This document shows, one piece after another, positions 4,256-52,535 of a stretch of 64,000 bases of DNA. A model generated the notes under the pieces. That model saw only the letters and a program-made list of their open reading frames with translations, searched no databases and had not been told where the DNA came from. The stretch covers positions 5,280,001 to 5,344,000 of the forward strand of contig OZ244065.1 of NCBI GenBank assembly GCA_965215505.1, read 5' to 3'. The translations under genes were made by a program, and so were the position numbers. Each line of letters starts with the position of its first letter. Position 1 is the first letter of the stretch. This DNA comes from Capsulimonadaceae bacterium (GTDB lineage: Bacteria; Armatimonadota; Armatimonadia; Armatimonadales; Capsulimonadaceae).

Positions 4256-4286
4256 CGGAAGACGGCCATTTAGGAAGACGTGTATC

Positions 4287-4961: not shown

Positions 4962-5079
4962 TGCCGGCCGGTGATGTCAGCTGGCGCGGGAACCGGAGGC
5001 CTCTCCCCCGTGTTCCTCTGATAGCGAGAGATGATGTGGCCTCCGCAGCCGGCGGACTGGCCGACCAAGGAGAAGAAGC

Positions 5080-5406
5080 ATGAGCGCAGTCCCCGCCGTT
5101 TCCACCGCCGAGTTCGACAAGCAGGTCCTGGAGTCTGAAATGCCTGTTCTGGTGGACTTTTGGGCCGTCTGGTGCGGCCCCTGCCGTACCATCGCCCCCG
5201 TTGTGGATGCCGTCGCGGAAGAGTTCGCGGGCCGCGCGAAGGTTTTCAAGCTGAATGTGGACGAGAATCCCGAGATCGCGGGCCGCTACGGTGTCCAGAG
5301 CATCCCGACCCTGATCGTCTTCAAGGCCGGCCAGAAGGTCGGCCAGCTCGCCGGTGCCCAGAACACGCGGCAGACCATCGGGGCCGCCCTGTCCGAGCAT
5401 GTCTGA
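5080..5406 (+). CDS. trxA: Thioredoxin
   Basis: [18 protein letters not shown]. Confidence 0.95.
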
Positions 5407-5465
5407 ACGACCGACCCCAAGCCATTTTCTAAATAAACCACTGTCTATATCAAGGAGAAGTTCGA

Positions 5466-5789
5466 ATGAGTAATGCCAGCGCCGTCACGACGGCCAATTT
5501 CGAGAAGGAAGTCTTGCAGTCCGATGTCCCCGTCCTCGTGGATTTCTGGGCACCCTGGTGCCCCCCCTGCCGTGCCATCGGCCCCACCCTGGATGCCCTC
5601 GCCGATGAGTACCAGGGCAAGGCCAAAGTAGTCAAGGTGGACGTGGACGATGAGCCGGAAGTCGCCTCGCGCTACGGCGTCAGCAGCATCCCCGCACTGC
5701 TGCTGTTCAAGGGCGGCGAGCAGGTCGGCCAGCTCGTCGGCGCGCATCCGAAGACGAGCATCGCCAATCTTATCACGAACGCCCTCTAA
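5466..5789 (+). CDS. trxA: Thioredoxin (second copy, WCPPC)
   Basis: VLVDFWAPWCPPC, SIPAL. Confidence 0.93.
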   Translation: MSNASAVTTANFEKEVLQSDVPVLVDFWAPWCPPCRAIGPTLDALADEYQGKAKVVKVDVDDEPEVASRYGVSSIPALLLFKGGEQVGQLVGAHPKTSIANLITNAL

Positions 5790-5850: not shown

Positions 5851-6690
5851 CTACCGGGATTGGGGCGGCGGCGGCTGCCCGAAGCCCTGGTTATGCACCA
5901 CCTCGCGGCTGTCATTGTCGCCCGTCGGCGGGTTCAGGACCTTGAACGGGTACACGCTGCGCCCGTCCTGATAGCCCGTCACGCCGTAGGTGGGGTAGGG
6001 GGCATCGCGCGTCACCGTCCACGCCGCCGGGTTGTCTTTGTCCTTTATGTCCCCGCCGCCCTTAAGGCTGCGGACATACGCCACCGCCGCCCACCTCTCG
6101 TTAGGCGTCAGCCAGTGCCGGAAGCCGGGCATCTTGCCCTGACCCATTGTGATATGCCAGAACATCGCCCCGTCCGAGATATGCTGCACCAGGGGCGCGG
6201 CCAGATCCGGCGGGTGGGGGACTAAGTACTGCCCCACCGTGCCGTAGCCGTACCCGCCTGGGTTGTGGCACTGTACGCACCGGTTGTAGAACAGCACCTG
6301 ACCCGACCGGACGACGTGCGGATCCTCCGGCAGTGGGCTTTTCAGGGCATCCACGGCCGCCGGGGCAGGCTCATACCGGGCGTTGTCGGAGAGGTTCGGC
6401 GGCGGCAGCGTCGGCTCCTTGGAAGGGAACTGGTTCAGGCGCACTCCCCCGCTGTACTTCGCCTCCGTATCGCCCGGCAGCTTCACCTGCGCGCCATACG
6501 CAATCGAGGCCACCGGCCGCGCGTCCGTCGGCAGGATGGCGTCGCCCGCCGAAACCGACTCCTGCGGCGGCGCGGCGCGGGGCGCGTCCAGCGGCGTATA
6601 GTTCGGCTGGCGGTACATCTGGTTGCCGCAGCCGGTCAGCGCGAGGAGGCCAAAAAGGCCGCCCGCGCTCTGTAACAGATTACTTCTCAT
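5851..6690 (-). CDS. actE: Monoheme cytochrome c lipoprotein, ActE-like (alternative complex III)
   Basis: Lipobox LLALTGC, MYRQP, CVQCH, GxGKMP. Confidence 0.8.
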   Translation of the reverse strand: MRSNLLQSAGGLFGLLALTGCGNQMYRQPNYTPLDAPRAAPPQESVSAGDAILPTDARPVASIAYGAQVKLPGDTEAKYSGGVRLNQFPSKEPTLPPPNLSDNARYEPAPAAVDALKSPLPEDPHVVRSGQVLFYNRCVQCHNPGGYGYGTVGQYLVPHPPDLAAPLVQHISDGAMFWHITMGQGKMPGFRHWLTPNERWAAVAYVRSLKGGGDIKDKDNPAAWTVTRDAPYPTYGVTGYQDGRSVYPFKVLNPPTGDNDSREVVHNQGFGQPPPPQSR

Positions 6691-6715
6691 GCAACTACAT
6701 TCTAATCACGCGCTT

Positions 6716-7243
6716 TCATTCAAAGCTGCGCGCGTCGTGCCGAACATCCGTCGCGCCGGCCTCACGGCAGAAGCGCTCCGCCCGCGTGGCCTGCTTCTCG
6801 TCGGCGCAGTGGGCGGCGATGCCGATCAGGCCCTCCGAGATGCGCGGGTCATAGACCTTTGCCCGCCAGTTCGGCAGGCGCATCTCGAACAGGGCCGCGA
6901 AGAAGGCCGCCGAGAGTGCGAACAGCATCATCATCTCGTAGGCAATGATGCCGGTCGGCGGGACCGGCGAGATCGGCTTGCCGCCCACCCGGATCAGGTA
7001 GAGCTGGGCGGACCCCGCCGCCAGGGCGATCCCGAACCCGATCCCGACCAGCGCGAACAGAATGGTGATCAGGGGCAGCCGGATCGGCGACCTATCCGCC
7101 TCCAGCACGCCCTCGGGAAAAGGCACCGAGGACAGCACCATCAGGTCCTCCGAGGCCGCGCCCCCTTCGCTCCGCAGCCGGTTGAGCGCGTTCGCCGCCT
7201 GGTCGATCTCCTCGAACAGTCCGAGTACCGTTGTTTCAGCCAT
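6716..7243 (-). CDS. actD: DUF3341 / ActD membrane subunit
   Basis: VLGLFEE, two TMs, VGGKP..., YDPRISEG. Confidence 0.85.
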   Translation of the reverse strand: MAETTVLGLFEEIDQAANALNRLRSEGGAASEDLMVLSSVPFPEGVLEADRSPIRLPLITILFALVGIGFGIALAAGSAQLYLIRVGGKPISPVPPTGIIAYEMMMLFALSAAFFAALFEMRLPNWRAKVYDPRISEGLIGIAAHCADEKQATRAERFCREAGATDVRHDARSFE

Positions 7244-7321
7244 CGTTTCCAACTTCTAAGGGAATGTGTTTGCATTACCCAAAAGGGACGGCCGTCAAAC
7301 CCGTCACTCCCCCAAGATCGG

Positions 7322-9118
7322 CTATTCCAGTGTGTGTCCGACGCAGGTCCAGGAGAGGATGTCGTACTGGGTGGTGGTCGTCGGAAAAGCGGGTGGGGGG
7401 TTAGTCGCCAGGCGTCCGTCGTAGTGGCGCTCAGTGGAAAGGCCGCTCGTCAGCAGGCCCCCGGCGGACAGGGTGCCGAAGCCGCCGCCGTGTCTGACGA
7501 TGAAACTGCCGACCTGTCTGAACGTGCCCAGAGGCCGCGTCGTCACGCCAGTCGCGTCACAGGTGTTGAACGCCAGAATGGCCGCGTCAACCTCGACGGC
7601 GGTCAGCGGCAGGCTGTTCGAGTCCCGATCAACCACCTCGACCGTGTTGGAGATCAGGCCCAGCGTCCCCGCCTGCTGCGTCAGGATCGTGTTCAAAGGC
7701 TGCGTCAGCGGCAGGGAAAGGAGCGCGCTGTATTGGAGGCTGCCGTCAATGTTCATGTTCCTGCCGGCATCGGTTGCGATGGTCAGGTGGTTGCTGGGGA
7801 GGAGCGCGCCCAAAACCTGGTTGTCCAGGATCGTCCCGTGGAGGCCGCCGGATTTGGGGGCGGACTGGCTTCCGATGTTCCCATCACAGTAGATCACGCC
7901 ATTCCCGATGCCGACATAGAAGGTGATGAGGGGCAGCGCGAAGGACCGTGTGACGACCACCGTCGTCTGATTGAGCAGGCCGTTAAGCAGGACTGTGGTC
8001 GTGAATGGTCCCACGCCGTCCTGCTGCTGGATGCTGATGGATTGGACATTGCCCGCCCCGACCGCCAGCGTCATTTCCTGCACGTCGCCGTGGACGTAGA
8101 TGCCGCCGACCGTGGTGCCGCCGCTGATCCCGCTGGTGAGGACGCCGTTGAGCAGACTCGTGACCAGCCCGCCGCCCCCGCCGCTTGGGATAGTCACGCC
8201 GACCGCCGTTGGCGCGGGCGTTCCGGCAAGCGCCGCCAGTTTCTGCGGCGTGCTGTCGGCGGGGAAGGCGATCGTCGGCGTCCCGCAATGCACCGATGCC
8301 GCCCCGCCCGCAGCGAGGGAAGACCAGTCGGCCGTGGTGTGTGGACTCGTGGCGGCCGTGGGGGTGCTGAGGAACCAGTTGACATGGGTGCCGGACATGG
8401 TCACCGCGTCCGCCGCGCCGTCACTGAAGATCGGCTGGGGCGCGGCCGTCTTCCACAGGATGTTGTTCACGACGCCGCCCGGACTGCCGTCGGGGTTGGA
8501 GTTGTTGCAGTGGACCGGGCCGTCGAAGCCGGTCACGCCGCTGATCCAGTAAGCGTCCGGCGCGGACTGATCGGAAAAGTAGTTGTATTTGGCGAAGCTG
8601 ACCTGCTGGACCTCGGCCTCGACGGTCTGCACGGACGCCCCGCAGGTGCCTATCGCCTCGATCAGATACTTCTTCGGGGCCGACCCCGAATTGCCGCCGC
8701 CGGGGTAGACACGGATGCTGAACGTATGGGCGGCATCCGGGTAGCTCACGACCGCGCGCTGCGGGCTGCCGGCGAGGGATGCCCCCCAGAGGGTCGGCGC
8801 GAACGCCTGGGTCTGGGAAGGGGGCGCGGCCTGAGTGTGCAGCCACTGAAGCGTCAGTTCGACGCCCGAGGCGGCGAGTTCGGAGGCGGTCGTCGCCTGC
8901 GCGCGCGCCGCCGTCATCTGCAAGGAATTACCCGCCGTCGCCGCCCCACCGCCGCCGCTGGTGCCGGGGACCAGCGTGATCCCGATCAGCATCGCGGTCA
9001 TCAGCCCCAGCAGGACCAGCATCGTCAGGGCGAACGCCATGCCGCGACGCCGCCCCCGCCTAGTCGGAGCGCAGGGGCGTGTTCGTGGCTCCGTAGGTGG
9101 GCGTCGGGTTTGGCTCAT
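7322..9118 (-). CDS. PilX/GspK-like minor pilin with large C-terminal domain
   Basis: RRRRG|MAFALTMLVLLG prepilin-like without Glu5; FDGPVHCN; YDGRLATNPPPAFP. Confidence 0.75.
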   Translation of the reverse strand: MSQTRRPPTEPRTRPCAPTRRGRRRGMAFALTMLVLLGLMTAMLIGITLVPGTSGGGGAATAGNSLQMTAARAQATTASELAASGVELTLQWLHTQAAPPSQTQAFAPTLWGASLAGSPQRAVVSYPDAAHTFSIRVYPGGGNSGSAPKKYLIEAIGTCGASVQTVEAEVQQVSFAKYNYFSDQSAPDAYWISGVTGFDGPVHCNNSNPDGSPGGVVNNILWKTAAPQPIFSDGAADAVTMSGTHVNWFLSTPTAATSPHTTADWSSLAAGGAASVHCGTPTIAFPADSTPQKLAALAGTPAPTAVGVTIPSGGGGGLVTSLLNGVLTSGISGGTTVGGIYVHGDVQEMTLAVGAGNVQSISIQQQDGVGPFTTTVLLNGLLNQTTVVVTRSFALPLITFYVGIGNGVIYCDGNIGSQSAPKSGGLHGTILDNQVLGALLPSNHLTIATDAGRNMNIDGSLQYSALLSLPLTQPLNTILTQQAGTLGLISNTVEVVDRDSNSLPLTAVEVDAAILAFNTCDATGVTTRPLGTFRQVGSFIVRHGGGFGTLSAGGLLTSGLSTERHYDGRLATNPPPAFPTTTTQYDILSWTCVGHTLE

Positions 9119-9887
9119 GGTCTAGGTTCAGTTCATGGTCCCGCGACAGGACGCACTTGCCGATGACGGGCACCTGCTGGCTCCCCGCCGTCATCTCGCT
9201 GGTCTGGGTGCCGCGCAGGGACGAGTAGTAGGCGCTGACGAGGCGGACTTCCAGTTGGTAGGGGAACTGTTGCGCGCCGGACGAGTCGGCGGGCCGCTGG
9301 AACTGGACGGCGCCGGCCGAGGCCGGGCTGAGGCTGGCGAGCAGCGCCCTGCCGACCGGCTGCCCCAACTCCGCCCCACTCAGCCAGAGATAGCCGCCGG
9401 ATGCGGCGTTAGGAGTGCCGTCGCTGTTCGCGCGGTAGATCCATAAGACGCTGGCGGGCGAGGACGTTGCGGAGCGGTCGTAGGCGGGGGGCATGAGGAG
9501 ACTCCCGTTCCCGCCCGCCACCGAGGGGGAACCCGAGGCCGGGGAGACCAGCTCAACGCCCGTGTCCAGCAGGGAGCCGCCCGCAGTCGTCTGGAACGCG
9601 CCGGGCGCCTGCCCCCCCGGCGAGGTCCACCAGGCGTCCTCCGGCAGAGCCAGCCAGTGTGCCTCTTCGACGTCTCTGGCGATGTGCTGCACCGCGTTGG
9701 CCGCGTCGGTCGTGGCGTAACACGCGGCCCCGCTCTGGACGGTGATCTGCGCCGAGGCGACATAAAGGTCAACCGCCCCTAGGAAAAGCAGCAGCGTGAG
9801 CGAACCGCCGACGATGACCTCGACGAGCGTGAACCCTCGCCGCGCTCTCCCCTGCTGCCTTTTCCCCTGCTGTCTGTTCCTAGTCAT
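9060..9887 (-). CDS. Prepilin-type minor pilin (PilW-like)
   Basis: RRG|FTLVEVIVG; start at ATG 9887. Confidence 0.8.
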   Translation of the reverse strand: MTRNRQQGKRQQGRARRGFTLVEVIVGGSLTLLLFLGAVDLYVASAQITVQSGAACYATTDAANAVQHIARDVEEAHWLALPEDAWWTSPGGQAPGAFQTTAGGSLLDTGVELVSPASGSPSVAGGNGSLLMPPAYDRSATSSPASVLWIYRANSDGTPNAASGGYLWLSGAELGQPVGRALLASLSPASAGAVQFQRPADSSGAQQFPYQLEVRLVSAYYSSLRGTQTSEMTAGSQQVPVIGKCVLSRDHELNLDHEPNPTPTYGATNTPLRSD

Positions 9888-9912
9888 GTTCTCGCTGCTC
9901 CCTCGCACCCGG

Positions 9913-10446
9913 TCAGGAGTGCGGCATCTGGATGACCAGGCCGGTGAGGCTGTAACCGCCTGCGGCGGCCGCACCCGCAGGCCAGTGCAGGGCCACCGTC
10001 ACGCTGTCCACCGTGCCTGCCGGGACGGTCGCGTTCAGCGAGGCGTAGTCGGTGACGGTCAGTGTGGCCGTTGTCCCCTGGAGGAACACCCCCTGCCCGC
10101 TGGAATCCGCCAGCAGGCGGTCGCAGGCGGTGAAGTTCGCCGTGTAGGGCACCCCGAGACTCGTACTCGTGCCCGCATCAATGATGCCGAGCGAGGCCAG
10201 TGTCGCCGGGCTTTGCAGCGCTTGGAAGCCGGCCCCGCGAATCTGCATCAGTTTATGCTGCGCCAGGGCCGACGCCTGCGCGTAGTGGCCGCTCACGCGC
10301 GCCGACAGCAATGTCATGGGTAGCACAGCGGCGAAGAGCAGGCCCATCATCACGAAGATGCCCAGCGCGAACACCGCCTCGAAGAGCGTGAATCCGCGCC
10401 CGGAAGCATCGCGAGACCTGTGCGGTGTTCGTGTGATTGTTCTCAT
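9913..10446 (-). CDS. Prepilin-type minor pilin (PilV-like)
   Basis: GRG|FTLFEAVFALGIF. Confidence 0.8.
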   Translation of the reverse strand: MRTITRTPHRSRDASGRGFTLFEAVFALGIFVMMGLLFAAVLPMTLLSARVSGHYAQASALAQHKLMQIRGAGFQALQSPATLASLGIIDAGTSTSLGVPYTANFTACDRLLADSSGQGVFLQGTTATLTVTDYASLNATVPAGTVDSVTVALHWPAGAAAAGGYSLTGLVIQMPHS

Positions 10447-10575
10447 CCATCATCATTATCGCGCCTCGGCGCGGTTTCTTTAGGGCTGCCGGCTTGCTGG
10501 AGTGCCCGAATGCTCTACAGTGGCCCGGCATTTTTGCCGATACTCTCACGAGACGCATGGCACCCCCGGTCGCGG

Positions 10576-10623
10576 AAAGTTGGTGCAGAAGTTAATGCAG
10601 AAAGTTGATGCAGGAAGTCAATG
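10576..10623 (+). repeat. Four imperfect 12-13 bp direct repeats (AAGTTGATGCAG-like)
   Basis: aaagttggtgcag aagttaatgcag aaagttgatgcag gaagtcaatg ending in the kinase ATG. Confidence 0.8.
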
Positions 10624-13600
10624 ACGAGCGATACCCCTGACGCTTCCAAAGAGGCCTACCGCCTGAACGCGCTCTGCCAACTCCAGATCCTAGACAGCGC
10701 GCGGGAGCAGGAGTATGATGACCTGGTCGAGATCGCCGCCGCCATCTGCGGGACGCCCGTCGCTCTGATCACGCTGCTGGACGAGAACCGCCAGTGGTTC
10801 AAAGCCAGCGTCGGCGTGTCCATGACGCAGACGGCGCGGAGCGACTCCTTCTGTAACCACGCGATCTCCCAGACCGAGCTGTTCGTCGTCCCCGACCTCG
10901 CCGCCGACGCGCGCTTCGCAGGAAACCCGTTCGTCGCCGGCGAGCCGCATGTACGCTTTTACGCCGGGATGCCGCTGATCACCCCGGAAGGCCACGCGTT
11001 GGGGACGCTCTGCGTCCTCGACGTCGTTCCTCGCGAACTGACCCCGACGCAGAAACGCACCTTACAGGCCCTGGGCCGTCAGGTGATCAGCCTGCTGGAA
11101 CTGCGGCGCAGCGTTGTACGCATGGAACGGAACATGGCCGAGCGCGCGCATGTGCAGGCCGCCCTCCGGGAAAGCGAGGCGCGGCTGCGTGAAACCGACG
11201 CGGCCCTCCAGTTCGCCTGCAAAGCGGGGCGGATAGGCCTCTGGGAGAGCAATCTGGAATCGGGCAAGACGACTTGGTCCGCCGGCAATGCGCGGCTGTT
11301 CGGGATGGAATTGGAAGACTTCGACGGTTCCCCGGAGATGACGCTCGGGCGCGTCCATCCCGATGACCGTGCCCTCCTTAAGCGCGAAAGCGCTCTCGCG
11401 GTCCTGAACCTCACGCCCTTGAAACTGGAACTGCGCGCGCTGCACCCGGACGGGACCATCCGCTGGATTCTGCTCAGCGCGGAGGTCGTCACGGATGAGT
11501 CCGGACGCCCCCTTCGGTTGAGCGGTTCGGCAACGGACATCACCGAGCGCAGGGAAGCGGAGGAAGCGCGCGGGCGGAGCGAGGAGTGGCTGCGGACGGT
11601 GGTCGCGGGGGCACCGCTGGTCCTGTTCTCTCTGGATGCCGCCGGGAGGTTTACGGTCTCTGAGGGGAAGGGCCTGGAGCGGATCGGGATGCTGTCCGGA
11701 CAAGTAGTGGGGCAATCCGCTTACGATTTGTATGCCGGTTTCCCGGAAGTTCTGGGGCATCTGGAGCGCGCCTACGACGGCGAGGCATTCAATGTGCGGG
11801 CAGACATTGGTGCCCTGACGTTTGAAACCTGGTACTCCCCGGTGTTCGGAGAGGACGGCCACGTCGCCGGCGTGATCGGCGTTGCGTGTGACATCACCGA
11901 AAGCCGTAATGCCGAGCGAATGCTGCGTAACAGCGAGGCCCGGTTCCAGGCATTCATGGATAACAGCCCGACGATGGCTTATGTCAAAGACGATGAAGGC
12001 CGCTATGTGTACTGCAATGACGCTTTCGATCGTCTGCATCAGTTGCCTTCGGGCGAGTGCCTCGGGAAAACGGCCCTGGATCTATGGCCCGGTGCCGTGG
12101 GGGAAAAACTGCACACGGACACGCTGGACACGCTGGCCCAGGACCGCCTCACCGAGACCGTCGCCGTGATCCCGAGGCGCGGGGGCGGTTCCCAGCACCT
12201 GCTGACGTTCCGGTTCACCTTCCAGGACAGCGCCGGATCGGCATTCGTGGGGTGTATCGCGGTGGATGTCTCCGAGCAGGTGCGGGCAGAGAGGCAGTGG
12301 GAGGACACGCAGCAGCAGTTGGAAGAGACGCTGTCGCAGTTGAACGCCATCCTGGAAGCGACGGTGGATGGCCTTTTGGTCCTCGGCAACCAGGGCAGCC
12401 AGACGCGGGTCTTGCGCGCCAGTGGCACCTTCGATGAGATGTGGCACATCCCGGAAGAACTGACCGGGGGCAAGGACGCCGCCGGGCATCTTGCGTTTGT
12501 CGCCGGTCAGGTCACTGACCCCGATGCCTTCAGAGCCAGGGCGTTTTATCTGAACACGCACTTTGAAGAGGCCAGCTTTGACACCCTGAACCTCAAGGAC
12601 GGGCGAATTTTCGAGCGGTATTCGCGTCCGCTGCTCATCCAGGGGGCCTTCGCGGGGCGCGTCTATAGTTTCCGGGACGTCACCCAGCAGGAGCAGAGCC
12701 GGCAGGACCTGATCCGCGCGAAGAACCACGCGCTGGCCTCCGCCCAGGCCAAATCCGAGTTCCTCGCCAACATGAGCCATGAGATACGCACGCCGATGAA
12801 CGGCATCCTAGGCATGACCGACCTTCTGCTGGCGACGCCGCTGCTGCCGCAGCAGAGGCACCAAGCCGTGACCGTCAAGAACAGCGCCAACAGCCTGCTG
12901 ACGATCGTGAACGACATCCTCGACTTCAGCAAGATTGAGGCCGGCAAGCTGATTCTAGAGGCGGTGCCGTTCAGCATCCCCCAGGTTATGCGGGAAGTGA
13001 AAGACCTCCTCGGCCCGCGCGCGGAAGAAAAGAACGTCGCCCTCCTCTGCTCCCTGCCGCCGGACTTCCCGTCGGCCGTGTGCGGCGATGCGGCGCGGCT
13101 GCGCCAGATACTCACGAATCTGGTCGGCAACGCCCTGAAGTTCACCGAGCGCGGCCAGGTGGTCATGGAGGCGCGCGTGCTGCGGGAGACACCCACCCAC
13201 GTCGAGTTCCGTCTGTCCGTGCGCGACACCGGAATCGGCATCGCCAAAGACCGGCAGACGGCCATCTTCGACAGTTTCACACAGGAGGACGGCAGCATCA
13301 CCCGCCGCTACGGCGGGACCGGGCTGGGCCTGGCGATCTGCCTGCGGCTGACGGACCTCATGGCGGGGCGCATCGGGCTGGAAAGCGAACCCGGATGGGG
13401 CAGCGAGTTCTGGCTGACCGTGACTTTGGAAAAGACGACCGCAGTGCTGGACGAAGCGGCGGCCGCCCCTTCGACCGAAACGGAGCCGCTGGGGCTGCGC
13501 GTCCTGTTGGTGGAGGACAACATCATCAACCAGGAAGTGGCCTGCGGCTTCCTGGAGATGTGGGGCTGTATCGTGGATGTCGCCGACAACGGCTGGAAGG

Positions 13601-14322
13601 CCTGCCTGGCCGTCCGCGCGAAGACGTATGACTTGGCCTTGATGGACGTCCAGATGCCCGAGATGGATGGCCGCCAGGCGACCGCGGATATCCGTGGGCG
13701 CGAGCGCGGGACGGCGCGGCGCCTGCCGATCATCGCCATGACGGCCCACAACATGCAGGGCGACCGCGAACAGTGCCTCGCCTGCGGCATGGACGACTAC
13801 GTCTCCAAGCCGGTCGACCCGAAACAACTGCTGGCCGCCCTCAAGCGCTGGGGCGGCCCCGCCCTGGGCGGGGCGGTCCCGCCTGCCCCGGAAGTTCCGC
13901 CCGCCCCGACAGTCATTCCGGCTCCGGAGCCTCCGCCGGCCCCGGAAAGGCTGCCGGAAGGCCTGCCGGTGCTGGACATCGAGCGCCTGCACAAGAGCTG
14001 TGCGGGCAAAGCGAAGCTGGAACGGAGGATCATGACGGAGACCCTGCGGCTGACCCCGCAGATCCTGGACCGTCTGCGCGCGGCGGTCGGCGCGGCGGAC
14101 GCCGACCCGACCCGGTTCGAGGCACACACCCTCAAAGGCAGCAGCCGCACCCTCGGCGCGGAGGCGCTGGGGAACGCCGCGTCCCTCCTGGAAGAGGCAG
14201 CAAAGGCGGGCGATCTGGCCGACGCGCCCGCACTGCTGGGCCGGATACAGGCGGACTGGACGGCACTGAGCGCGCGTCTCGAGGATTGCCTGACCCGCGA
14301 ACCCTGGAAAGACGCCCTATGA
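10621..14322 (+). CDS. Hybrid sensor histidine kinase (GAF-PASx4-HisKA-HATPase-REC-Hpt)
   Basis: [53 protein letters not shown]; no TM segments seen. Confidence 0.95.
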
Positions 14323-16454
14323 ACATACTCGTCGTCGAAGATGATCCCATCTCGGGGCTGGTGCTTACGACGGCATTGGAGGACCTCGGACACGTCATCA
14401 CCCTGCGCGGGAATGGGCAGGAGGCATGGTCTCTGCTCCAGTCAGACCACTTCGCCGTGGTCATCTCCGACTGGATGATGCCCCAGATGGACGGCCTGGA
14501 ACTGTGCCGCCACGTCCGGGGCCAGGCCGATTTCACCTACTTCATCCTGCTGACCGTCAAAGGCCTGCCTGAAGAGCGCCTGGAGGCGCTGGAGGCCGGC
14601 GCGGACGACTTCCTAATCAAGCCGCTCGACCCCGCCGAACTCGTGGCGCGCATGGAGGTAGCCCGGCGCATCCTGGCTTTGAAGGCGGAACTGAAGGTGA
14701 AGGCCGCGCCCGGCCCGATGCAGCGCCAGAACGTGGACCTCGGCGATGTCTTGGTTTCGCGCGGGGTCCTGAGCCGCTTACAGCTCGCACAGCTCGTGGA
14801 GCAGGAGCTGATCCCGCCGGCACAACTGGCGGCGGCCATCCTGGAACGAGGCTGGGTGGACGAAGAAAATATCACCCAGGCGCGCAGCCTGGTGATGGAC
14901 GTCCCCTATGTGGCGCTGGACGCGGAAACCATGGATCCCTTCGTCCTGTCGCTCGTCCCACATGAGATCGCGCAGTTTTATAAGCTGGTGCCGCTGTCGC
15001 TGATGGACGATGACCGGAAGCGGCTCCGGGTGGCGATGGCAAACCCCTGGAACATCGAAGCCATTGACTGGGTGCAGCGCGAGACGCGCCGCCCGGTCGA
15101 GCCGCTGCTCGCCAGCGACACGGCCATCGGGCGCGCGCTGAAGCGGGCCTACCAGGACGTCCAGGACGTGGTCCACGATGCGGTCATGAACAATGCCCTG
15201 TCGCAGGCCACCGTCGAGACGGTTTCCAAGGGCAACCTGATCGACACGGTGGACGCGCGCGAGCTGCTCCGCCAGAGTGACCAGGCCCCCATCATCCGGT
15301 TTGTCAACACGATGCTGGCCGATGCCGTCCATCGCGGGGCCTCCGACGTCCACATCGAGCCGGGCAAAGACGATTTTCAGATATTTTACCGGGTGGACGG
15401 GAAACTCCACCGCGTCCGCACCGTGACCGGGTCCTTCCTCGCCCCGGTGACCTCCCGGATGAAACTCATGGCCGAGATGGACATCGCCGAACGGCGGCTG
15501 CCCCAGGACGGACACGTCGCCCTGCGTATCGCCGAGAAAGTCGTGGACATGCGCCTTTCCACCCTGCCGACACAGTTCGGCGAGCGCGTGGTCATCCGCG
15601 TCCTGGACCGCTCGGTCGCCTGCCTCCAGCTCGAACAGCTCGGCCTGGCCCCGAACAACAAGCGTGCCGTGGCCCAGCTCATCCATAAGCCCCACGGCAT
15701 CGTCCTCGTCACCGGTCCGACCGGGAGCGGCAAAACGACCACGCTGTATGCCGCCCTGAACGCGCTGATCCAAGAGAGCCGGACCGGCCTGGGCCGCAAG
15801 AACATCCTGACCTGTGAGGACCCGATCGAGTACCAGATCGACGGCATCAGCCAGTCCAACGTCAACGAGCGGGCCGGGCTGACTTTCGCGCGCCAACTCC
15901 GCGCCATCCTGCGTCAAGATCCGGACGTCATCCTGATCGGGGAGATCCGGGACGCCGAGACGGCCGACATCGCCTTCCGCGCCGCCATGACCGGCCACCT
16001 GGTTCTGTCCACGCTGCACTGCAATGAGGCCGCCGGGGCCGTCAGCCGCCTGATGGATCTCGGCGTGGCTCCCTACCTGATCGCCTCATCACTCGCCGGC
16101 GTGGTCGCGCAGCGGCTCGTCCCGCGACTCTGCCTGCACTGCCGCCGCGCCTACACGCCGCCGCCCGACGAGCTGGCCGTGTTCGCCGCGCCGCCCGAGC
16201 GCCTCTACGCGCCCGTCGGCTGCGGCCAATGCCATGAGATAGGTCTGAAAGGGCGGATCGCGATCCACGAGGTCATGGTGTGCGACGACGACATCCAGGA
16301 GAGGATCATGGCCCACGAGGACACGCGCCTCATCCGCTCGGCGGCCCTGTCCGCAGGCATGACTCTGATGGTCAGCGACGGCCTGGAGAAAGTCAGCCAG
16401 GGCCTCGTGCAGCTCGAAGACGTCCTATGGCGGACAGGCCGCCTGGAAAAATGA
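14319..16454 (+). CDS. Receiver domain fused to PilB/GspE secretion ATPase
   Basis: ATG 14319 overlaps kinase stop (ATGA); [59 protein letters not shown]. Confidence 0.92.
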
Positions 16455-16498
16455 CCGGGCGGCGTACCACCCGGTCATCCCCTCACCTAATCATCCCC

Positions 16499-17932
16499 TC
16501 ACCCAATCGTGTCTTCGCGCATCGTCACCGGGACGTCCGCGCCGCCGACGCGCTGGACGCCCTCGGCGTGTTCGCCCTCGCGGTACTCCCACATCGAGAC
16601 GATGGGGATGAACTTCGTCAGCAACGTGTACAGGAACCCGAACAGCCCGTAAGCCCCGACCGTGATCACGAGGTCCGGCCAGGCCGGCGTGTAGTTGCCC
16701 CAGGTCAACCGGTTCCGCGCGACGCTCGGCACGACCACCAGGATGCGCTCGGAGAACATGGCGATGTTGACCGCGACGCCGACGCCGAGCATCGCCCAGG
16801 GCGACCGCCGGACCTGCTTGAACAGCAGCGCGACCACCGGGACCAGGACCGCGAAGATCGGCAGCAGGATTAGCACCCACTTGTAGCCGTCGAATAGGAA
16901 GTGGACGTAGTTCTCGTGGTCCGGGTCGCGCGAGAACCAGTCCGACCAGACATCGCCGCCGAAGAAGTACGACCAGAACAGCGCGATGAACAGCAGGATC
17001 TTCCCGATGTTGTCGAAGTGCATCGGCAGGATGTACTGCTCCAGGTGGAACACCCAGCGCAGCAGGCACATGACCACGCACACCGCACCCGCTCCGGACA
17101 GCAGAGCGCCGCAGACGAAGTAGGGCGCGAAGATGTTGGAGTGCCACCCCGGCACGATGCTCATGCCGAAGTCCCAGCCGACGATGGTGTGTAGCGAGAC
17201 GAAGACAGGGATGATCATCACCGTCAGGATGCCGAACAGCACCTTCAGCCGCCGCCACTCCCGGTCGGTCCCGCGCCAGCCCAGAGCCAGGACCGTGTAA
17301 AGGGCGTTCCGCCAGCCGAAAGTCCGCTCGCGCAATGTCGCGAAGTCCGGGACGATCCCCGAGAACCAGAAAATGACGCTCGTAATCAAGTAGACGCCGA
17401 TGGCCGTCGCATCCCAGATCAGCGGGCTTTTGTAGTCCGGCCATAGCTGCCGCTCGTTCGGGAACGGGATGAAGTAGTAGAACAGCCAGTTCCGCCCGAT
17501 GTGCAGCAGCGGGAAGACGCCCGCCACGGCCAGCGCGCAGACGGTCAGAGTCTCCGCCAGCCGCGTCAAGGACCGCCGCCACCCCGCGTGGAGCAGCCGC
17601 AGGATCGCCGAGATCATCGTCCCGGACAGCGCGACGCCCGCCCAGAAGATGAAGTTCGCGATGTCCAGGCCCCAGTAGACCGGCCGGTCCATGCCCCAGA
17701 CGCCCATGCCCTGATAGAGCTGCCAGCCGAACGTCAGCACCGCCGCCCCGAGGATCGAGGCGAAGAAGCCCAGCACGGCCCACCAGCGCCAGTTCGTCTG
17801 GAGGACCGAGTTCGTCAGGTCCGAGTTCACCTGGGCGGCGGGCGGCACGGGCAGGTGGACCGCCGCCGTGTCCCGGAGCGGGATGTCTTGTGTCGTTAAA
17901 ACGCGGTCGATGTCACGTTCCAGCAGTCCCAT
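16499..17932 (-). CDS. actC: NrfD/PsrC family quinol-oxidising subunit ActC
   Basis: GVWG..PVYWG, LHIGRNW, SPLIWD, PDFATLR, WHSNIFAPYFV. Confidence 0.88.
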   Translation of the reverse strand: MGLLERDIDRVLTTQDIPLRDTAAVHLPVPPAAQVNSDLTNSVLQTNWRWWAVLGFFASILGAAVLTFGWQLYQGMGVWGMDRPVYWGLDIANFIFWAGVALSGTMISAILRLLHAGWRRSLTRLAETLTVCALAVAGVFPLLHIGRNWLFYYFIPFPNERQLWPDYKSPLIWDATAIGVYLITSVIFWFSGIVPDFATLRERTFGWRNALYTVLALGWRGTDREWRRLKVLFGILTVMIIPVFVSLHTIVGWDFGMSIVPGWHSNIFAPYFVCGALLSGAGAVCVVMCLLRWVFHLEQYILPMHFDNIGKILLFIALFWSYFFGGDVWSDWFSRDPDHENYVHFLFDGYKWVLILLPIFAVLVPVVALLFKQVRRSPWAMLGVGVAVNIAMFSERILVVVPSVARNRLTWGNYTPAWPDLVITVGAYGLFGFLYTLLTKFIPIVSMWEYREGEHAEGVQRVGGADVPVTMREDTIG

Positions 17933-17969
17933 ACGTTTTCTCTTCTAATTCTCGTTTAGTGATTGTCTT

Positions 17970-19376
17970 CTAGTTCTCCCACATGGGAGGGTCTTCCACC
18001 ATCACCGTGACCGTCGTGTTCCCCATGCGCCGCTCCGCCGTGCGCGTCCGCTCCTTGCTCGTGCCCCACCAGGACATGATCGGGAAGTAGCGCGCGCCGA
18101 TCAGGAACGTCAGCACGAACATGGCCGTGATGCCGAAGAAGACGACGATGGCCGGGCCGGTCGGCAGCAGCGGCTCCATCCCGTACTTCGGCGCGAACGT
18201 CGGCACCGTGTCCAGATACCGCTGGCAGGTGATCCCGGTCAGGACCAGGATGCTGATGCCGCAGAGCGCCCAGCGCCGCTTGCGGTTCCGGGGGAACAGG
18301 TTGCCGAAGATCGGCGCGGCCGAGCAGCCCACCACCATCAGCCCGACCAGGATGGGGAACGCGACCGTGCGGCTCTGCTGGAGGTTCCACTCGCTCGGGA
18401 TGTGCCCGTACCAGGCCGTCAGGAAGTCGCAGATGCGGAAGTACGTCCAGATGAGCGCCAGGCCCACCATGAACTTGCCCAGGTTGTCGTACTGCGAGTC
18501 GGTGAAAAACCCGCGCCCGCGCAGCAGCCGGTTCACGACCGTCATCAGCAGCACGGCCATCGCCACCGCCCCCAGCACCGAGCCGAGCGTGTACAGCGGC
18601 GCGAAGATGCTCGAATCCCAGTCCCGCGCGGCGGCCAGTTGGAAGTCCCAGCCGAGAACGGTCTGCGACCCGACGAAAGAAGCGACGACGCCGATGACCA
18701 TGACGCCCTCCGCCCGCCGCAGGATGCGCCACTGGTAATCCGCCCCGACCCACTTGACTTTCCCCCAGCGTGTCACGCGGTCATAGAGCTTTTTCTCCTT
18801 GGAGCCGTCCGGGGCGCGGTCGCGCAGCATGGCGAAGTCCGGCAGGGCGGTCAGGAACAGCAGGAACCAGCCCGCCAGGAAGGCCGTGCCGACCATGACG
18901 GCGTCCCAGCCGAGCGGCGTAGATACGCGCCACACGTTGTCCCGGTACTCGGCGGCTCCCAGGGCATAAATCTCCCGCCGCGCGATCAGCATCAGTGGCA
19001 GCAGCAGCGGCCCCCACAGCCCGAACAGCGATCCCATGTCCAGCAGGCGGTTCAGCGGGTAGCGCCACGAGGCGTGGGACAGCCGCAGGATGGCGGACAA
19101 GGCCACCATCCCCTGCGACAGCCCGATCCAGAACAGCAGTGAAACCAGCGAGACGTGCCAGAAGCCGGGGTCGTTGCGGTGACCGCCGAACCAGCCATAC
19201 CCGTAGATGATAAACCCGGCCAGGATGACCAGCGCGAAACACGACCAGGTCGTGATCCGCAGCTTCGTCAGCCGGGACTTGTGCGGGTCCTCAAGCACCA
19301 GCCGCAGCGGCTCATAGGCGTTCGCATCCAGGGCGACCCCGCGCGGCGAGTTCAGAATGCTTTCTTCGTCAAACAT
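17970..19376 (-). CDS. Second NrfD-family membrane subunit (ActF-like)
   Basis: Paralogous to neighbour (WIG..SAILRL..WR, PDFAMLRD, W.SSIFAP). Confidence 0.8.
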   Translation of the reverse strand: MFDEESILNSPRGVALDANAYEPLRLVLEDPHKSRLTKLRITTWSCFALVILAGFIIYGYGWFGGHRNDPGFWHVSLVSLLFWIGLSQGMVALSAILRLSHASWRYPLNRLLDMGSLFGLWGPLLLPLMLIARREIYALGAAEYRDNVWRVSTPLGWDAVMVGTAFLAGWFLLFLTALPDFAMLRDRAPDGSKEKKLYDRVTRWGKVKWVGADYQWRILRRAEGVMVIGVVASFVGSQTVLGWDFQLAAARDWDSSIFAPLYTLGSVLGAVAMAVLLMTVVNRLLRGRGFFTDSQYDNLGKFMVGLALIWTYFRICDFLTAWYGHIPSEWNLQQSRTVAFPILVGLMVVGCSAAPIFGNLFPRNRKRRWALCGISILVLTGITCQRYLDTVPTFAPKYGMEPLLPTGPAIVVFFGITAMFVLTFLIGARYFPIMSWWGTSKERTRTAERRMGNTTVTVMVEDPPMWEN

Positions 19377-19379
19377 GGC

Positions 19380-20243
19380 TTATGCCGCCGCCTCCGCGTC
19401 CGCCTCGTCCACGGACTTCAGATAGACGATCGCGGGCGAAGTCCCCAGCTCTTCCAGCAGCCGGAACCGCCGCGAGTCGTTCCACAGCTTGGCGACCGTC
19501 CAGTCCGTCTTCGGGTCGAACTCCGGCTCGCCCTGCGCCTTCGGGCGGGTCTTGACGTTCCCGAAGGTGATCGCCTTGGGCGGGCAGGCCTGCGCGCAGG
19601 CGACTGTGAATTCGTCCGGCTCCAGCTCCCGGTCCTCCGCCCCCGCCTTCTCCTCGGCCCTCCGGATGCGCTGGACGCAGAAGGTACACTTCTCCATCAC
19701 ACCCTTCTCGCGCACGGTCACGTCCGGGTTCAAGTGCTGGTTCAGCGGCTCGTCCCACGAATGCTCGAACCAGTTGAACACGCGGACGTCATACGGGCAG
19801 TTGTTGCCGCAGTAGCGCGTCCCCACGCACCGGTTATAGACCATCGCGTTCAATCCTTCGGGATTGTGATAGGTCGCATAGACCGGGCAGACCGGCTCGC
19901 ACGGCGCATTGTCGCAGTGCTGGCAGGGGATCGGCATGAACCGGGCCTTGACGTTCGGGTATTTGCCCTCCCAGTAACGCTCGACGCGAATCCATTGGTG
20001 CAGCCGGCCCTGATGCGCCTGCTGCTCGCCGACGACCGGGATGTTGTTCTCCATGGCGCAGGCCGCCTCGCAGGCGTGGCAGCCCGTGCAGCGGTCCAGG
20101 TCAATGACCATGCCCCACTTGCGCGTGACGCGGCCGTCTTCATAATCCTGAATATACGGGGAAGCCTTGCGCTCCGAGGGGCCTTCGCCCGAGCTGCTCG
20201 GACCGCCGTTGCGCTCTTTCCCGAGTTCTGTTCCGTCCGGCAT
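19380..20243 (-). CDS. 4Fe-4S dicluster protein, ActB2
   Basis: CTGCHACEAAC, CQHCDNAPCEPVCP, CVGTRYCGNNCPY, GVMEKCTFC. Confidence 0.92.
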   Translation of the reverse strand: MPDGTELGKERNGGPSSSGEGPSERKASPYIQDYEDGRVTRKWGMVIDLDRCTGCHACEAACAMENNIPVVGEQQAHQGRLHQWIRVERYWEGKYPNVKARFMPIPCQHCDNAPCEPVCPVYATYHNPEGLNAMVYNRCVGTRYCGNNCPYDVRVFNWFEHSWDEPLNQHLNPDVTVREKGVMEKCTFCVQRIRRAEEKAGAEDRELEPDEFTVACAQACPPKAITFGNVKTRPKAQGEPEFDPKTDWTVAKLWNDSRRFRLLEELGTSPAIVYLKSVDEADAEAAA

Positions 20244-20260
20244 TTTCGACTGTCTTTCTA

Positions 20261-22729
20261 CTACTCGGCCGCCCCCGGCTCGCCGGGGTTCTCCACGGTG
20301 CCGGGCGCGCGCTTGAACATGGAGCCGTCTGCCTGCGGAGCGCCCAGGACCTGGGCCGGGGCCTTCTTCCACTCCTTGGCGGTCGTGTGGATCAGGTGCT
20401 TGACCGCATCCGGCTCCCCGCCACCCGGCCGGTCCTGCGCCAGCACCAGCGTCGAGCCGTGCGGATCATAGCCGCTCTTGGCGTCCGCCACCTTCTTCAA
20501 GGTCACGGTCGTCGCGCCGTAAGCCAGCGCGCCCGTTTGGACGTCCGCCGTCGGGTCCAGGATGGCGAGCGGGTTCTGCCCGCGCCCCGCCGCGTTGCGC
20601 CCGTAGACCTCGTGCCCCTGCCCGATCGGCATGGCGACCGCTTGGGGGTTGATGCCGGGGTAGGGGACGGCGGGGACATCCACCGACCCGTGCGCCGTCG
20701 TCAGCCGCACGATGTCGCCGGTACGGATGCCCAGGGAGTGCGCGACCTCCATGTTGATCTCCACCCAGGAGTTCCAGACCGCCATCGTCATCGGGTCCGG
20801 GTTTTCCTGCATCCACCCCAGGTTGGCATGCCGCCCGTCGTGGTTGTAGATGTTCGGGTACAGATGCAGCGCGAACGCCCCCGCTCCCCTCTGACTCCCC
20901 TCTCCCGGCACGGGGGAGGGGCGGGGGGTGGGGGCAGTCACAGCCCGCGTCGCCGCGCCCGTCGTCCAAGCCCCGCCCGTGGCGAGCGCTCCCACCCACG
21001 CCGGGTCGTTCTCGGTCGTGTCGGCGGCGAGGTCGGCCTGCCCGATGCCCGCCCACGTCCGCCGCACGGCGGCCCGCGTGTCGGCGTCCGTCAGAGTCTT
21101 GCCCATCCGGCCCGCGATGTCGGTCAGCAGTCCGCCCAAGGGCCGCGTGTCCATCCACGGCACGAATACCTGGTGGTCCTGCACCTGCCCGTGCCCGCCG
21201 ACGAACTGCGGGTCAATGATCGGCTGCCGCAGGGTCGCCAGGTGTACCCCCGCCGGGATGACCGGCGGGACGTGGTCCCCCCAATCCTCCAGGAACGTCC
21301 GCGTCGGAAGGACGACATCGGCATGGGCCGTCGTCTCGTCCTCGAAGGGCGTCATCGCCGCGACAAACGACACCTTCGCCAAAGCCTCGGTGAACCCCGT
21401 CGCCGTCGGCAGCGTGAACACCGGGTTCGGCTGGCCCAAAATCAGCAGCGCACCGACTTGCCCAGATTGCATGGCCTGTACCAACTGCTGAATGCCCTTG
21501 AAGCCGACCCCGTCCGTGCCGGCGGCAGCGGGCGCGGCGATCCCCGCCGTCCCGAACCCCACACACCGGCTCCCCACCTGCGCGTTCAATGCTTCAACCG
21601 CCGTAAACGCCGCCGTCGCATTGGCCGAATTCATCAATCCGTTGCCGGGGACTGCCACCGCGCGCGCCCCAGCCGTCCGCATCGCGTCCGCGATGCTCTG
21701 GATCTGCACCTCGGTCAATCCGGACGCCGACGCTGCCTGAGCCATGGGAACGCCCGCGCCGCCCAGCGCAGCCCCGACCGCTGACGCCACGACCGCCTCC
21801 GTGCCCGGATTGCAAGGCAGCCACACGTCCGCCTTCGCCGCCGTCATGCTCATGCGCGGGCCGACATAGACAAACCGCCCGTGTTCGCCCTGCGCCCGGC
21901 GCGGCCCCTGCCGGAAGTCGCCGAACAGGCGGTTGTAATAGACGGGCGAAGGCCACGCCTCCAGGAAGTCGCCGCCGAACGAGACGATCAGGTCCGCCTC
22001 GTCGAGCTGATAGGCCGGCACCTGGTCGCGCCCGTAGACCGACCGCGAGGCAGCCCGCCAGGGGGCGTCGTCCAGCAGCGAATAGGTAAAGACAGTCGCG
22101 CCAATCACCCCGGCGAACTCCCGGATCAGACGCATCTGCGTCGGGGAATGGCCGAACTCCTGCGCGTCGGCCAAAATGGCGACCCGGCCCGACGCGCCTC
22201 GCAGGCCCTTAACGACCCGGCCCAGGGCCGGCTCCCACTCAGACTGTGTGGCCGAGACTTCGGTGATCTTCGCGCGACCGTCCGGCGGGTTGGCGTCCTT
22301 GTCCCGGTCCCGCGTGAACGTCGCGCCCCGCCGGTCGTGCAGGGCGGGGACGCGCAGCCGGTCCGGGTTGTACAGGTGCTGCAAGGCCGTCTGGCCCCGC
22401 GCACAGGAGCCGCCCCGGCTGACCGGGTGGGCGGGGTTGCCCTCGACTTTGAGCGCCCGCCCGCTCATCGTCCGGACCAGGAGGCCGCACCCCGCTGGAC
22501 ACATCTGGCAGACCGTGGCGAAGTACTGCGGCACGCCGTCCTGGTAGCCGTCGGGCTGGTTCAGGTAGGGGTAGACGCGGTTGTCATAGCCCCCGTACTG
22601 GCCGGTGACCTCCGCCCGGTAGAGGCCGGGGTTGTAGCGGCTCAGGGGACGGACTTCGCAGCCGGAGGCGGCGACCGCGCCGCCGACCACGGTGAGCTGT
22701 ATGAATTTGCGCCGACTGATCTCGGTCAT
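20261..22729 (-). CDS. Tat-exported molybdopterin oxidoreductase-like subunit, ActB1
   Basis: SRRKFIQ Tat motif, CQMCPAGC...C, KVEGNPAHP, WMQENPDP. Confidence 0.9.
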   Translation of the reverse strand: MTEISRRKFIQLTVVGGAVAASGCEVRPLSRYNPGLYRAEVTGQYGGYDNRVYPYLNQPDGYQDGVPQYFATVCQMCPAGCGLLVRTMSGRALKVEGNPAHPVSRGGSCARGQTALQHLYNPDRLRVPALHDRRGATFTRDRDKDANPPDGRAKITEVSATQSEWEPALGRVVKGLRGASGRVAILADAQEFGHSPTQMRLIREFAGVIGATVFTYSLLDDAPWRAASRSVYGRDQVPAYQLDEADLIVSFGGDFLEAWPSPVYYNRLFGDFRQGPRRAQGEHGRFVYVGPRMSMTAAKADVWLPCNPGTEAVVASAVGAALGGAGVPMAQAASASGLTEVQIQSIADAMRTAGARAVAVPGNGLMNSANATAAFTAVEALNAQVGSRCVGFGTAGIAAPAAAGTDGVGFKGIQQLVQAMQSGQVGALLILGQPNPVFTLPTATGFTEALAKVSFVAAMTPFEDETTAHADVVLPTRTFLEDWGDHVPPVIPAGVHLATLRQPIIDPQFVGGHGQVQDHQVFVPWMDTRPLGGLLTDIAGRMGKTLTDADTRAAVRRTWAGIGQADLAADTTENDPAWVGALATGGAWTTGAATRAVTAPTPRPSPVPGEGSQRGAGAFALHLYPNIYNHDGRHANLGWMQENPDPMTMAVWNSWVEINMEVAHSLGIRTGDIVRLTTAHGSVDVPAVPYPGINPQAVAMPIGQGHEVYGRNAAGRGQNPLAILDPTADVQTGALAYGATTVTLKKVADAKSGYDPHGSTLVLAQDRPGGGEPDAVKHLIHTTAKEWKKAPAQVLGAPQADGSMFKRAPGTVENPGEPGAAE

Positions 22730-52529: not shown

Positions 52530-52535
52530 ATAACC

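Follow-up and report, generated by a model that had tools for sequence, protein, structure and literature searches.

A receiver-fused PilB-type ATPase, its coupled hybrid kinase and three pilin-like genes: a candidate signal-gated type IV filament module in Capsulimonadaceae

Type IV filament motors of the PilB and MshE kind are known to take in signals at the protein level. In MshEN domains, cyclic di-GMP (c-di-GMP) is bound by two tandem copies of a motif with the consensus RLGxx(L/V/I)(L/V/I)xxG(L/V/I)(L/V/I)xxxxLxxxLxxQ (Wang 2016, PMC5013675). In MshE, c-di-GMP lifts ATPase activity by only ~10% yet is needed for function (Roelofs 2015, PMC4624772), a gain too small to account for how the N-terminal domain really works. 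Receivers that act on PilB in trans are likewise established. The regulator DrdR of Xanthomonas campestris, which includes a pseudo-receiver, binds to both PilB and PilT, whose ATPase activity it raises (PMC13507683). In Synechocystis, regulators of the PatA-type PATAN-REC kind bind to PilB1 and PilC by way of their PATAN domain (bioRxiv 10.1101/2021.06.11.447907). An association of the MshEN domain with the two-component receiver domain REC has also been described (Wang 2016, PMC5013675). Here, we describe a locus in which the receiver is part of the motor polypeptide. It lies in a 64,000-nucleotide (nt) stretch, hereafter the window, of a Capsulimonadaceae bacterium of the phylum Armatimonadota (GCA_965215505.1, contig OZ244065.1, positions 5,280,001 to 5,344,000), a host described as a soil-type bacterium with a genome of 6.18 Mb in one contig. 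A gene for a hybrid histidine kinase (P0001) is followed there by a gene for a REC-MshEN-T2SSE ATPase (P0002), and a prediction made from the DNA letters alone (the original prediction) proposed that His-Asp phosphorylation has replaced c-di-GMP as the input of this motor.

The ATPase contains three domains that exceed their Pfam cut-offs: Response_reg (PF00072) at residues 3–112 (93.1 bits against a cut-off of 30.2), MshEN (PF05157) at 194–280 (58.2 against 23.1) and T2SSE (PF00437) at 319–703 (449.7 against 24.9). Its receiver has a complete active-site set (E7, D8, D9, D51, T79, F98 and K101), so that the intact N-terminal receiver of the original prediction is confirmed, and the same goes for the complete PilB/GspE-type ATPase, in which Walker A (residue 466), Walker B (534), the His box (559) and the four cysteines (605, 608, 635 and 638) are all kept. 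Among proteins of solved structure, Geobacter PilB (416 bits) matches best, together with Thermus PilF and Myxococcus PilB, and GspE 4PHT reaches 394 bits. An AlphaFold2 model computed from a 40-row alignment has confident domains (mean predicted local distance difference test score, pLDDT, 81.6). It places a long alpha-5 helix (residues 105–128) at the end of the receiver, followed by a disordered link (130–137), four helices (141–193), an alpha/beta part and a second disordered link (284–320); both links fall below a pLDDT of 50.

The fusion is found well beyond this one assembly. Contigs from sequencing runs bridge the junctions (14139–15320 and 13740–15317, with 3 differing letters each), and a contig of a third study spans the whole stretch and may be the source assembly itself. 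Among the best 120 homologues listed, which come from several sources, 55 combine REC, MshEN and T2SSE (41–100% identity) and 61 are unfused. A match running through P0002 residues 1 to ~199, a query that dead-receiver forms escape, is present in 16 of 61 genomes of the order: 8/20 in the genus, 2/11 in other genera of the family and 6/30 in a second family. A search of 201 genomes of the phylum gives full-length matches in at least 6 genomes among the best 150 of 729 matches, to which re-alignment adds 3, and within that same scope all 9 belong to this order. The suspicion that a CheY-like regulator gene and a PilB gene were joined by an assembly or gene-calling error is left with practically no probability by the single 711-codon frame, the 55 of 120 homologues, the 16 of 61 genomes and the bridging contigs of three studies. 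Absence of the fusion from relatives, which had been named as a ground for doubting it, is not what we find. In one metagenome-assembled relative (L019, 7828–9955), the match to the fused ATPase is split over two frames with an overlap at 8933–8955, a frameshift or an assembly error.

The REC-MshEN-T2SSE architecture is already catalogued and is widespread, and the gene described here is a further member of that kind. A domain-architecture search in the ESM Atlas returns clusters with all three domains of 55–3005 members, commonest in Gemmatimonadota, Thermodesulfobacteriota and Pseudomonadota, and an 81-member cluster, commonest in Elusimicrobiota, that lists REC and T2SSE only. With a spread over several phyla, the architecture is less unusual than the original prediction implied. 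When P0002 residues 1–300 are compared with proteins clustered at 50%, 8 of the best 150 match unbroken from about residue 1–16 to at least 279, most of the others being multi-receiver proteins; with so few unbroken matches, the Armatimonadota family looks distinct from other fused families. Our literature searches found no experimental study of the architecture, and the words 'receiver' and 'fused' each have 0 occurrences in a 2024 review of PilB.

What sets P0002 apart from c-di-GMP-binding motors is the state of its two motifs. Its residues 137–300 align (HMMER) with the MshEN domains of Geobacter, Myxococcus and Thermus PilB/PilF and of Vibrio cholerae 5HTL, which places the 24-residue motifs at 140–163 and 169–192. 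The fold and profile are those of MshEN; the tandem motif of Wang 2016 is incomplete. Motif 1 has Asp for Arg1 and Glu for Gln24, and motif 2 has Gln for Arg1, Ala for Gly3 and Val for Gln24, so the loss of both RLG arginines (Arg-Leu-Gly, the first residues of the motif) was read correctly in the original prediction. All five changed positions are kept in the closest unfused PilB paralogue of the same genome (54–55% identity, both RLG motifs intact), encoded just beyond the 3′ end of the window (G000:C1:5344238–5345950, minus strand; locus L123, 217–2184). According to Roelofs 2015 (PMC4624772), the R9A change in MshE lowers c-di-GMP binding by 83% and gives no complementation, and Q32A lowers binding by 61%; according to Wang 2016 (PMC5013675), G40 variants abolish binding, and the loss of binding in XpsE is put down to changes including R38G, G40L and Q61V. 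Going by these residues, P0002 has likely lost c-di-GMP binding. The genome contains 27 GGDEF matches and therefore has c-di-GMP signalling in use, and the unfused paralogue, with its intact motifs, is likely the c-di-GMP-responsive motor of this genome. That paralogue, too, is an orphan, flanked by cytochrome c maturation genes, a gene of the metallo-beta-lactamase fold and an MscS channel, with no pilus genes among them.

The same relation between receiver and motifs can be followed through the family. Our alignment of 104 rows (54 fused proteins, 21 of the 61 unfused ones taken as every third, 4 paralogues from the same genome and 25 loci) holds 59 fused and 45 unfused rows; the truncated P0102, P0107, P0108, P0110 and P0116, the near-duplicates L094–L096 and the cut locus L121 had been dropped. 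An IQ-TREE tree (quick search, LG+G4, columns 193–705 only) joins 25 unfused rows with all 59 fused ones in a single clade, which has 100% support in the Shimodaira–Hasegawa-like approximate likelihood-ratio test. In the best tree the fused rows do not form one clade and 4 changes are needed, which would speak for several independent fusions, yet a tree that holds all fused rows together is not rejected (approximately unbiased test, p = 0.344), and we dropped that idea as a firm reading. The place of an Armatimonas-like clade is unsure because its branch is long.

Both arginines are kept in 36 of the 45 unfused rows and, within the clade, in 24 of 25, the exception starting at the motif; the paralogue beyond the window end is one of these 24. 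Among fused rows, the motif-1 arginine is gone in 52 of 59. Those with an intact receiver active-site set (40/59) never have both arginines: 28 have neither, 11 have that of motif 2 only and 1 has an arginine in an RAG context. The 19 rows with a degenerate receiver divide into 7 with both arginines, 9 with motif 2 only and 3 with neither. Leaving out 2 duplicate rows gives both arginines in 0/39 intact and 6/18 degenerate rows. All 7 fused rows with both arginines are Armatimonas-like, with D51 changed to Arg, T79 to Met and K101 to Tyr, and the receivers of this group score 33–46 bits against 93. Three further dead-receiver proteins (P0269–P0271) all keep the motif-1 arginine, and P0271 has Lys in place of the motif-2 arginine. 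In the 18-row subclade around P0002, decay of the motifs is general and variable. In none of the proteins seen in this family does an intact, kinase-paired receiver coincide with a complete c-di-GMP motif. Such complementary decay of a receiver and a c-di-GMP site within one family appears to be new here, and it suggests that the receiver may have taken over from the usual c-di-GMP signal in this lineage.

The candidate source of the phosphoryl group is the kinase encoded directly upstream, whose stop codon overlaps the start of the ATPase gene in an ATGA, as the original prediction had it. Pfam matches above cut-off in P0001 are GAF (29–155), PAS_3 (217–303), PAS_4 in three stretches (best 447–555), HisKA (710–775, 76.6 bits), HATPase_c (822–937, 91.8 bits), Response_reg (961–1074, 90.8 bits) and Hpt (1142–1218, 47.8 bits against a cut-off of 24.6). 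All four relay profiles (HisKA, HATPase_c, REC and the histidine phosphotransfer domain Hpt) are thus found, together with the His, Asp and His phospho-sites and the receiver lysine (K1063). P0001 stays below the NCBIfam equivalog cut-offs of BarA (425 vs 890), TorS (401.9 vs 676.5) and ArcB (318.3 vs 838). The domain profiles agree with the GAF/PAS hybrid kinase ending in Hpt that had been predicted; the word 'soluble' draws on a hydropathy scan, whose single hydrophobic peak, with a value of 2.1 at residue 35, falls within the GAF match. Judged from that scan, P0001 is probably cytoplasmic, and we set a membrane-bound kinase aside as unsupported. Immediately 5′ of the kinase ATG lie three 13-nt tandem repeats of approximately TGCAGRAAGTYRA (10577–10618), and a similar repeated stretch precedes the kinase gene in L019. 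A consensus promoter scan of 9000–17000 gave one promoter-like site against 0.8 expected, within the kinase gene, and none in 10447–10620; a terminator scan of the same range gave five terminator-like sites against 3.9 expected, and neither count is above chance.

Conservation of the kinase follows the state of the receiver. In 14 of 14 examined loci where the receiver is intact, the fused gene has a hybrid histidine kinase beside it; where the receiver is degenerate, this holds for 0 of 4. Seven close relatives (L013–L019, 7/7) have full-length kinase homologues that end where the ATPase begins, the end of the kinase match and the start of the ATPase match falling on one and the same base in L013 and L014. 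In L124, the kinase core, REC and Hpt lie upstream of the fused gene and the sensor part is not conserved; L129–L133 (5/5) have an upstream kinase core with one or two receivers and Hpt; and in L125 a PAS-PAS-HisKA-HATPase-REC-REC gene, cut by the contig end, starts 4 nt downstream of the ATPase frame. As the sensor part differs in distant relatives, the conserved unit is the relay core with its target and not the signal. The degenerate-receiver loci L126, L127, L128 and L134 have no kinase in flanks of 6–8 kb, those of L134 being only 1.3 and 4.9 kb. A link between receiver integrity and kinase adjacency would be new here. The expected conservation of an upstream Hpt kinase is therefore seen (with Hpt upstream in L124 and L129–L133), and the claim that the kinase is wired to the receiver-ATPase gains comparative support in the form of adjacency (14/14 vs 0/4). 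Two side observations concern these loci. In L126 (10449–11735, minus strand) and L127 (5662–6792), the dead-receiver, RLG-intact forms have a convergent, adjoining short T2SSE ATPase that lacks the N-terminal domain (a 428-residue open reading frame in L126). L125 has a gene for a PAS-GGDEF diguanylate cyclase (4110–5708, plus strand) ~3 kb 5′ of its receiver-fused ATPase.

On the other side of the kinase lie three divergent pilin-like genes that the original prediction had missed (Table 1). A Pfam scan of the open reading frames 5′ of the kinase gave no matches, and the genes were recognised from their translations, upon which we dropped the idea that the kinase–ATPase pair stands isolated from pilus genes. 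Two of the products have a GFTL motif followed by a hydrophobic stretch; N_methyl scores are 12.4 and, for the gene at 9060–9974, 17.1 bits against a cut-off of 21.2, and TIGR02532 reaches 13.8 bits against 16.3. The nearest ESM Atlas clusters of the third, a 598-residue protein, have PilX_N or DUF4900 in 13–16% of their members, which is a lead only. Trio, kinase and ATPase are arranged and oriented alike in all 7 of the 7 close relatives (L013–L019). Across 24 genomes of the genus, every orthologue of the 598-residue protein with an identity of at least 54% sits on the same contig as the fused gene, and 7 of 7 other genomes with a fused gene possess one; of the remaining 16 genomes, 15 have paralogues of 35–46% and 1 has no match. 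The three pilin-like genes, the kinase and the receiver-ATPase form a conserved five-gene module that is newly recognised here. In more distant relatives, no pilin-like genes were found beside the kinase–ATPase pair. The 598-residue protein itself belongs to a multi-copy family, with paralogues of 35–46% identity that are often in tandem and occur with or without a fused ATPase (e.g. G000:C1:5392814–5394505, minus strand).

Table 1. Components of the five-gene module, with positions in the window (aa, amino acids; AF2, AlphaFold2)
Feature	Position	Strand	Basis
598-aa protein, N-terminal hydrophobic segment, probably PilX-like large minor pilin	7322..9118	-	translation
Pilin-like gene, 304-aa frame, likely start M30, GFTLVE	9060..9974	-	translation; N_methyl below cut-off
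Pilin-like gene, 177 aa, prepilin-type G|FTLFE N-terminus	9913..10446	-	translation; profile matches below cut-off
Divergent intergenic region, pilin-like operon / kinase gene	10447..10620	.	boxes GCCGATACT and TTCTTTAGGG, recurring in relatives
Hybrid sensor histidine kinase P0001, 1233 aa	10621..14322	+	open reading frame, Pfam domains
Sensor part of kinase, GAF aa 29-155 and PAS aa 217-555	10705..12285	+	Pfam
Relay residues of P0001: H720; D1009; H1169	12778-12780; 13645-13647; 14125-14127	+	located in translation
Hpt domain, aa 1142-1218, kinase C-terminus	14044..14274	+	Pfam
ATGA overlap, ATPase ATG at 14319 over kinase TGA 14320-14322	14319..14322	+	sequence
REC-MshEN-T2SSE ATPase P0002, 711 aa	14319..16454	+	one open frame, Pfam
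Receiver domain, aa 1-128, D51 at nt 14469-14471, long alpha-5 helix aa 105-128	14319..14702	+	Pfam, alignment, AF2
MshEN_N four-helix part, aa 140-192, two degenerate c-di-GMP motifs	14736..14894	+	HMMER alignment, AF2
T2SSE ATPase core, aa 319-703	15273..16427	+	Pfam, motifs

We think it probable, with room for doubt, that these five genes form a signal-gated type IV filament module, in which a pilin-like trio is served by a GAF/PAS hybrid kinase coupled to a receiver-headed, PilB-type hexameric ATPase and a phospho-signal replaces c-di-GMP. The kinase would sense an intracellular cue and autophosphorylate at H720, and the phosphoryl group would be relayed via D1009 and the Hpt histidine H1169 to the receiver aspartate D51 of the ATPase. 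Once phosphorylated, the receiver could use its long alpha-5 helix and the short flexible linker to act on the adjoining MshEN four-helix bundle, the element that c-di-GMP would address in relatives, or on the association of subunits. Either the activity of the motor would be switched, or its docking onto a PilC/PilM platform encoded elsewhere, and the outcome would be gated assembly of a filament that the three pilin-like proteins encoded alongside would prime. The phospho-signal would supersede c-di-GMP in this lineage, with c-di-GMP sensing presumably kept by the unfused sister paralogue.

Several observations weigh against such a replacement. The motif-1 arginine is also missing in 12 of the 19 rows with a degenerate receiver, and two REC-less PilB paralogues of the genome (L001, in a pilB-pilT-pilC cluster, and L003) lack the arginines as well. 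In two fused proteins of another lineage, P0277 and P0278, a good receiver (86.5 bits) is accompanied by both RLG motifs; the T2SSE match of these proteins reaches only 89 bits. The 4–8 independent pairs that differ in receiver state include 0–3 in the predicted direction and none in the opposite one; this sign test is not significant, and cannot become so because the rows are kin and offer few independent pairs. For the claim that phosphorylation replaced c-di-GMP, the family pattern (0/40 against 24/25 unfused rows with both arginines) stands in its favour, and P0277/P0278, L001/L003 and the non-significant contrasts stand against it. P0002 itself retains the hydrophobic and Gly positions L2, G3, L6, V7, G10, V11, L12 and L17 of motif 1. 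According to Wang 2016 (PMC5013675), changes of Arg9, Asp12 and Gln32 shift affinity at most fivefold and hydrophobic contacts dominate binding; because most of these positions are kept, residual c-di-GMP binding by P0002 is possible. One may then picture the receiver as an addition to a working c-di-GMP sensor, with P0002 still binding through its hydrophobic core and integrating both signals, in line with the eight retained positions, the motif-2 arginine in 11 of 40 intact-receiver rows and the example of P0277 and P0278. We regard this as rather unlikely. Five of the most conserved motif positions differ between P0002 and its own unfused paralogue, R9A by itself removes most of the binding of MshE and abolishes its function (Roelofs 2015, PMC4624772), G40 changes abolish binding (Wang 2016, PMC5013675), and the decay in the P0002 subclade is general and variable, as relaxed selection would give.

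The remaining doubts concern what the receiver does and what the motor builds. The inter-domain arrangement in the AlphaFold2 model is not confident, and it is not to be trusted because the predicted template modelling score is only 0.51. That the receiver makes no fixed contact with the remainder of P0002 in the model is what one would see if the receiver did not gate the motor and were instead a phosphate sink or a tag for localisation or oligomerisation, the ATPase being constitutive or controlled by a partner. As recounted in the 2024 PilB review, single-domain sinks are known in Pil-Chp, with PilH as a possible one, and the REC of FimX affects localisation without phosphorylation. A sink needs no covalent fusion, kept across an order, to a 580-residue motor, however, and an intact receiver comes with an adjacent kinase and a decayed c-di-GMP site, which points to the receiver as the supplier of the N-terminal input; the free REC protein DrdR, moreover, raises the ATPase activity of PilB (PMC13507683). 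We therefore give a non-gating receiver a low probability. It is somewhat less improbable, but still doubtful, that the motor serves a type II-secretion-like pseudopilus or another kind of export, with the trio as pseudopilins. P0002 lies below the NCBIfam equivalog cut-offs of both PilB (TIGR02538, 550.2 vs 675.65) and GspE (TIGR02533, 550.6 vs 630.25), the two models being nearly equal, and GspE 4PHT aligns at 394 bits against 416 for PilB; the neighbourhood holds just three pilin-like genes and neither a major-pilin-like gene nor PilT, and the genome has 6 secretin matches. Set against this, PilB and PilF give the best alignments for the full-length N1 (MshEN) domain, PilB is the name that the nearest unfused paralogues bear in their sources, and the fused gene has no GspC, D, F, L or M gene beside it. 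A pseudopilus would in any case concern the output only and is compatible with control by a phosphorelay. The signal-gated type IV filament also has to accommodate two facts of gene content: no PilC, PilM/N/O or secretin gene lies near the fused gene within the window, and the genome as a whole has 7 PilB-size ATPases against 5 two-domain PilC-like genes, which lie at five other places, and a Tad set; prepilin peptidase has 2 matches in it.

The module (7322–16454) is set inside genes of an alternative complex III-like operon (window 5851–7252 and 16499–22729, minus strand), with convergent molybdopterin/FeS and two NrfD-type genes on the downstream flank and ActD (PF11821, 88.6 bits) and cytochrome c on the other. 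Homologues of these complex III-like genes are not found in the module flanks of relatives, so that its place differs between genomes. Elsewhere in the window, a DUF1559/N_methyl prepilin-like protein of a kind expanded in Planctomycetota and Armatimonadota is encoded at 2538–3320 (plus strand), with a similar one in L124 at ~1692. The G+C content of the window is ~0.60–0.71 per 2 kb except in one stretch (51843–53675, minus strand; 0.48 vs ~0.65), which encodes a 379-residue Swt1-like HEPN protein and a 228-residue protein without family match and may represent an island of foreign DNA or a pair of defence genes.

If the proposed control is real, P0002 would be the first pilus-type motor that is itself a response regulator, and its family would amount to a natural experiment, in which the same N-terminal module is addressed either by c-di-GMP (unfused and dead-receiver forms) or by a kinase-paired receiver. 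A homologue labelled by its source as Capsulimonas corticalis, a named, described species (P0020), puts the receiver-ATPase within reach of ordinary biochemistry and genetics. With considerable reservation, we can imagine a more general scheme, in which the MshEN bundle would be an input socket of PilB-type motors at large. In this Armatimonadota family, a fused, phosphorylated receiver might have replaced c-di-GMP at that socket, with a duplicate keeping c-di-GMP, so that the two signals became alternatives, and the five-gene unit might be a relocatable plug-in that calls up a specialised filament on a shared pilus machine in response to a cytoplasmic signal.

How does this module compare with the described systems? 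The kinase shares the HisKA-HATPase-REC-Hpt core and all three phospho-sites with kinases of the ArcB/BarA/TorS type. It differs from them in being, by our prediction, cytoplasmic, in its sensor of GAF and three PAS domains and in reaching none of their equivalog cut-offs, and its proposed terminal acceptor is an ATPase and not a transcription factor. The motor aligns over residues 133–706 with the PilB structures of Geobacter (5ZFR, 6OLJ, 5TSG) and Myxococcus (3JC8) and with Thermus PilF (6F8L) at 402–416 bits and shares all of their motor motifs. None of those structures has a receiver, and P0002 is under the PilB equivalog cut-off and is not encoded beside pilC, pilM or pilT. With MshE of V. 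cholerae (Roelofs 2015, PMC4624772; Wang 2016, PMC5013675; 5HTL) it shares the MshEN (N1) and T2SSE body, and the motifs can be aligned position by position. MshE-type ATPases are type IV filament motors under post-translational control by a sensory element at the N-terminus, and by analogy the receiver-headed N-terminus of P0002 may play such a part; P0002 adds the receiver, lacks a complete c-di-GMP motif and pairs with a hybrid kinase instead of a msh or pil operon. DrdR and the PATAN-REC regulators come closest in the route of the signal, as there, too, a two-component signal reaches the pilus extension motor at the protein level, in the way proposed for P0002, and the pseudo-receiver of DrdR resembles the dead receivers of the Armatimonas-like fused forms. 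Those regulators are separate proteins, and the cyanobacterial contact is made by the PATAN domain and not by REC, whereas in P0002 the receiver sits within the motor polypeptide itself.

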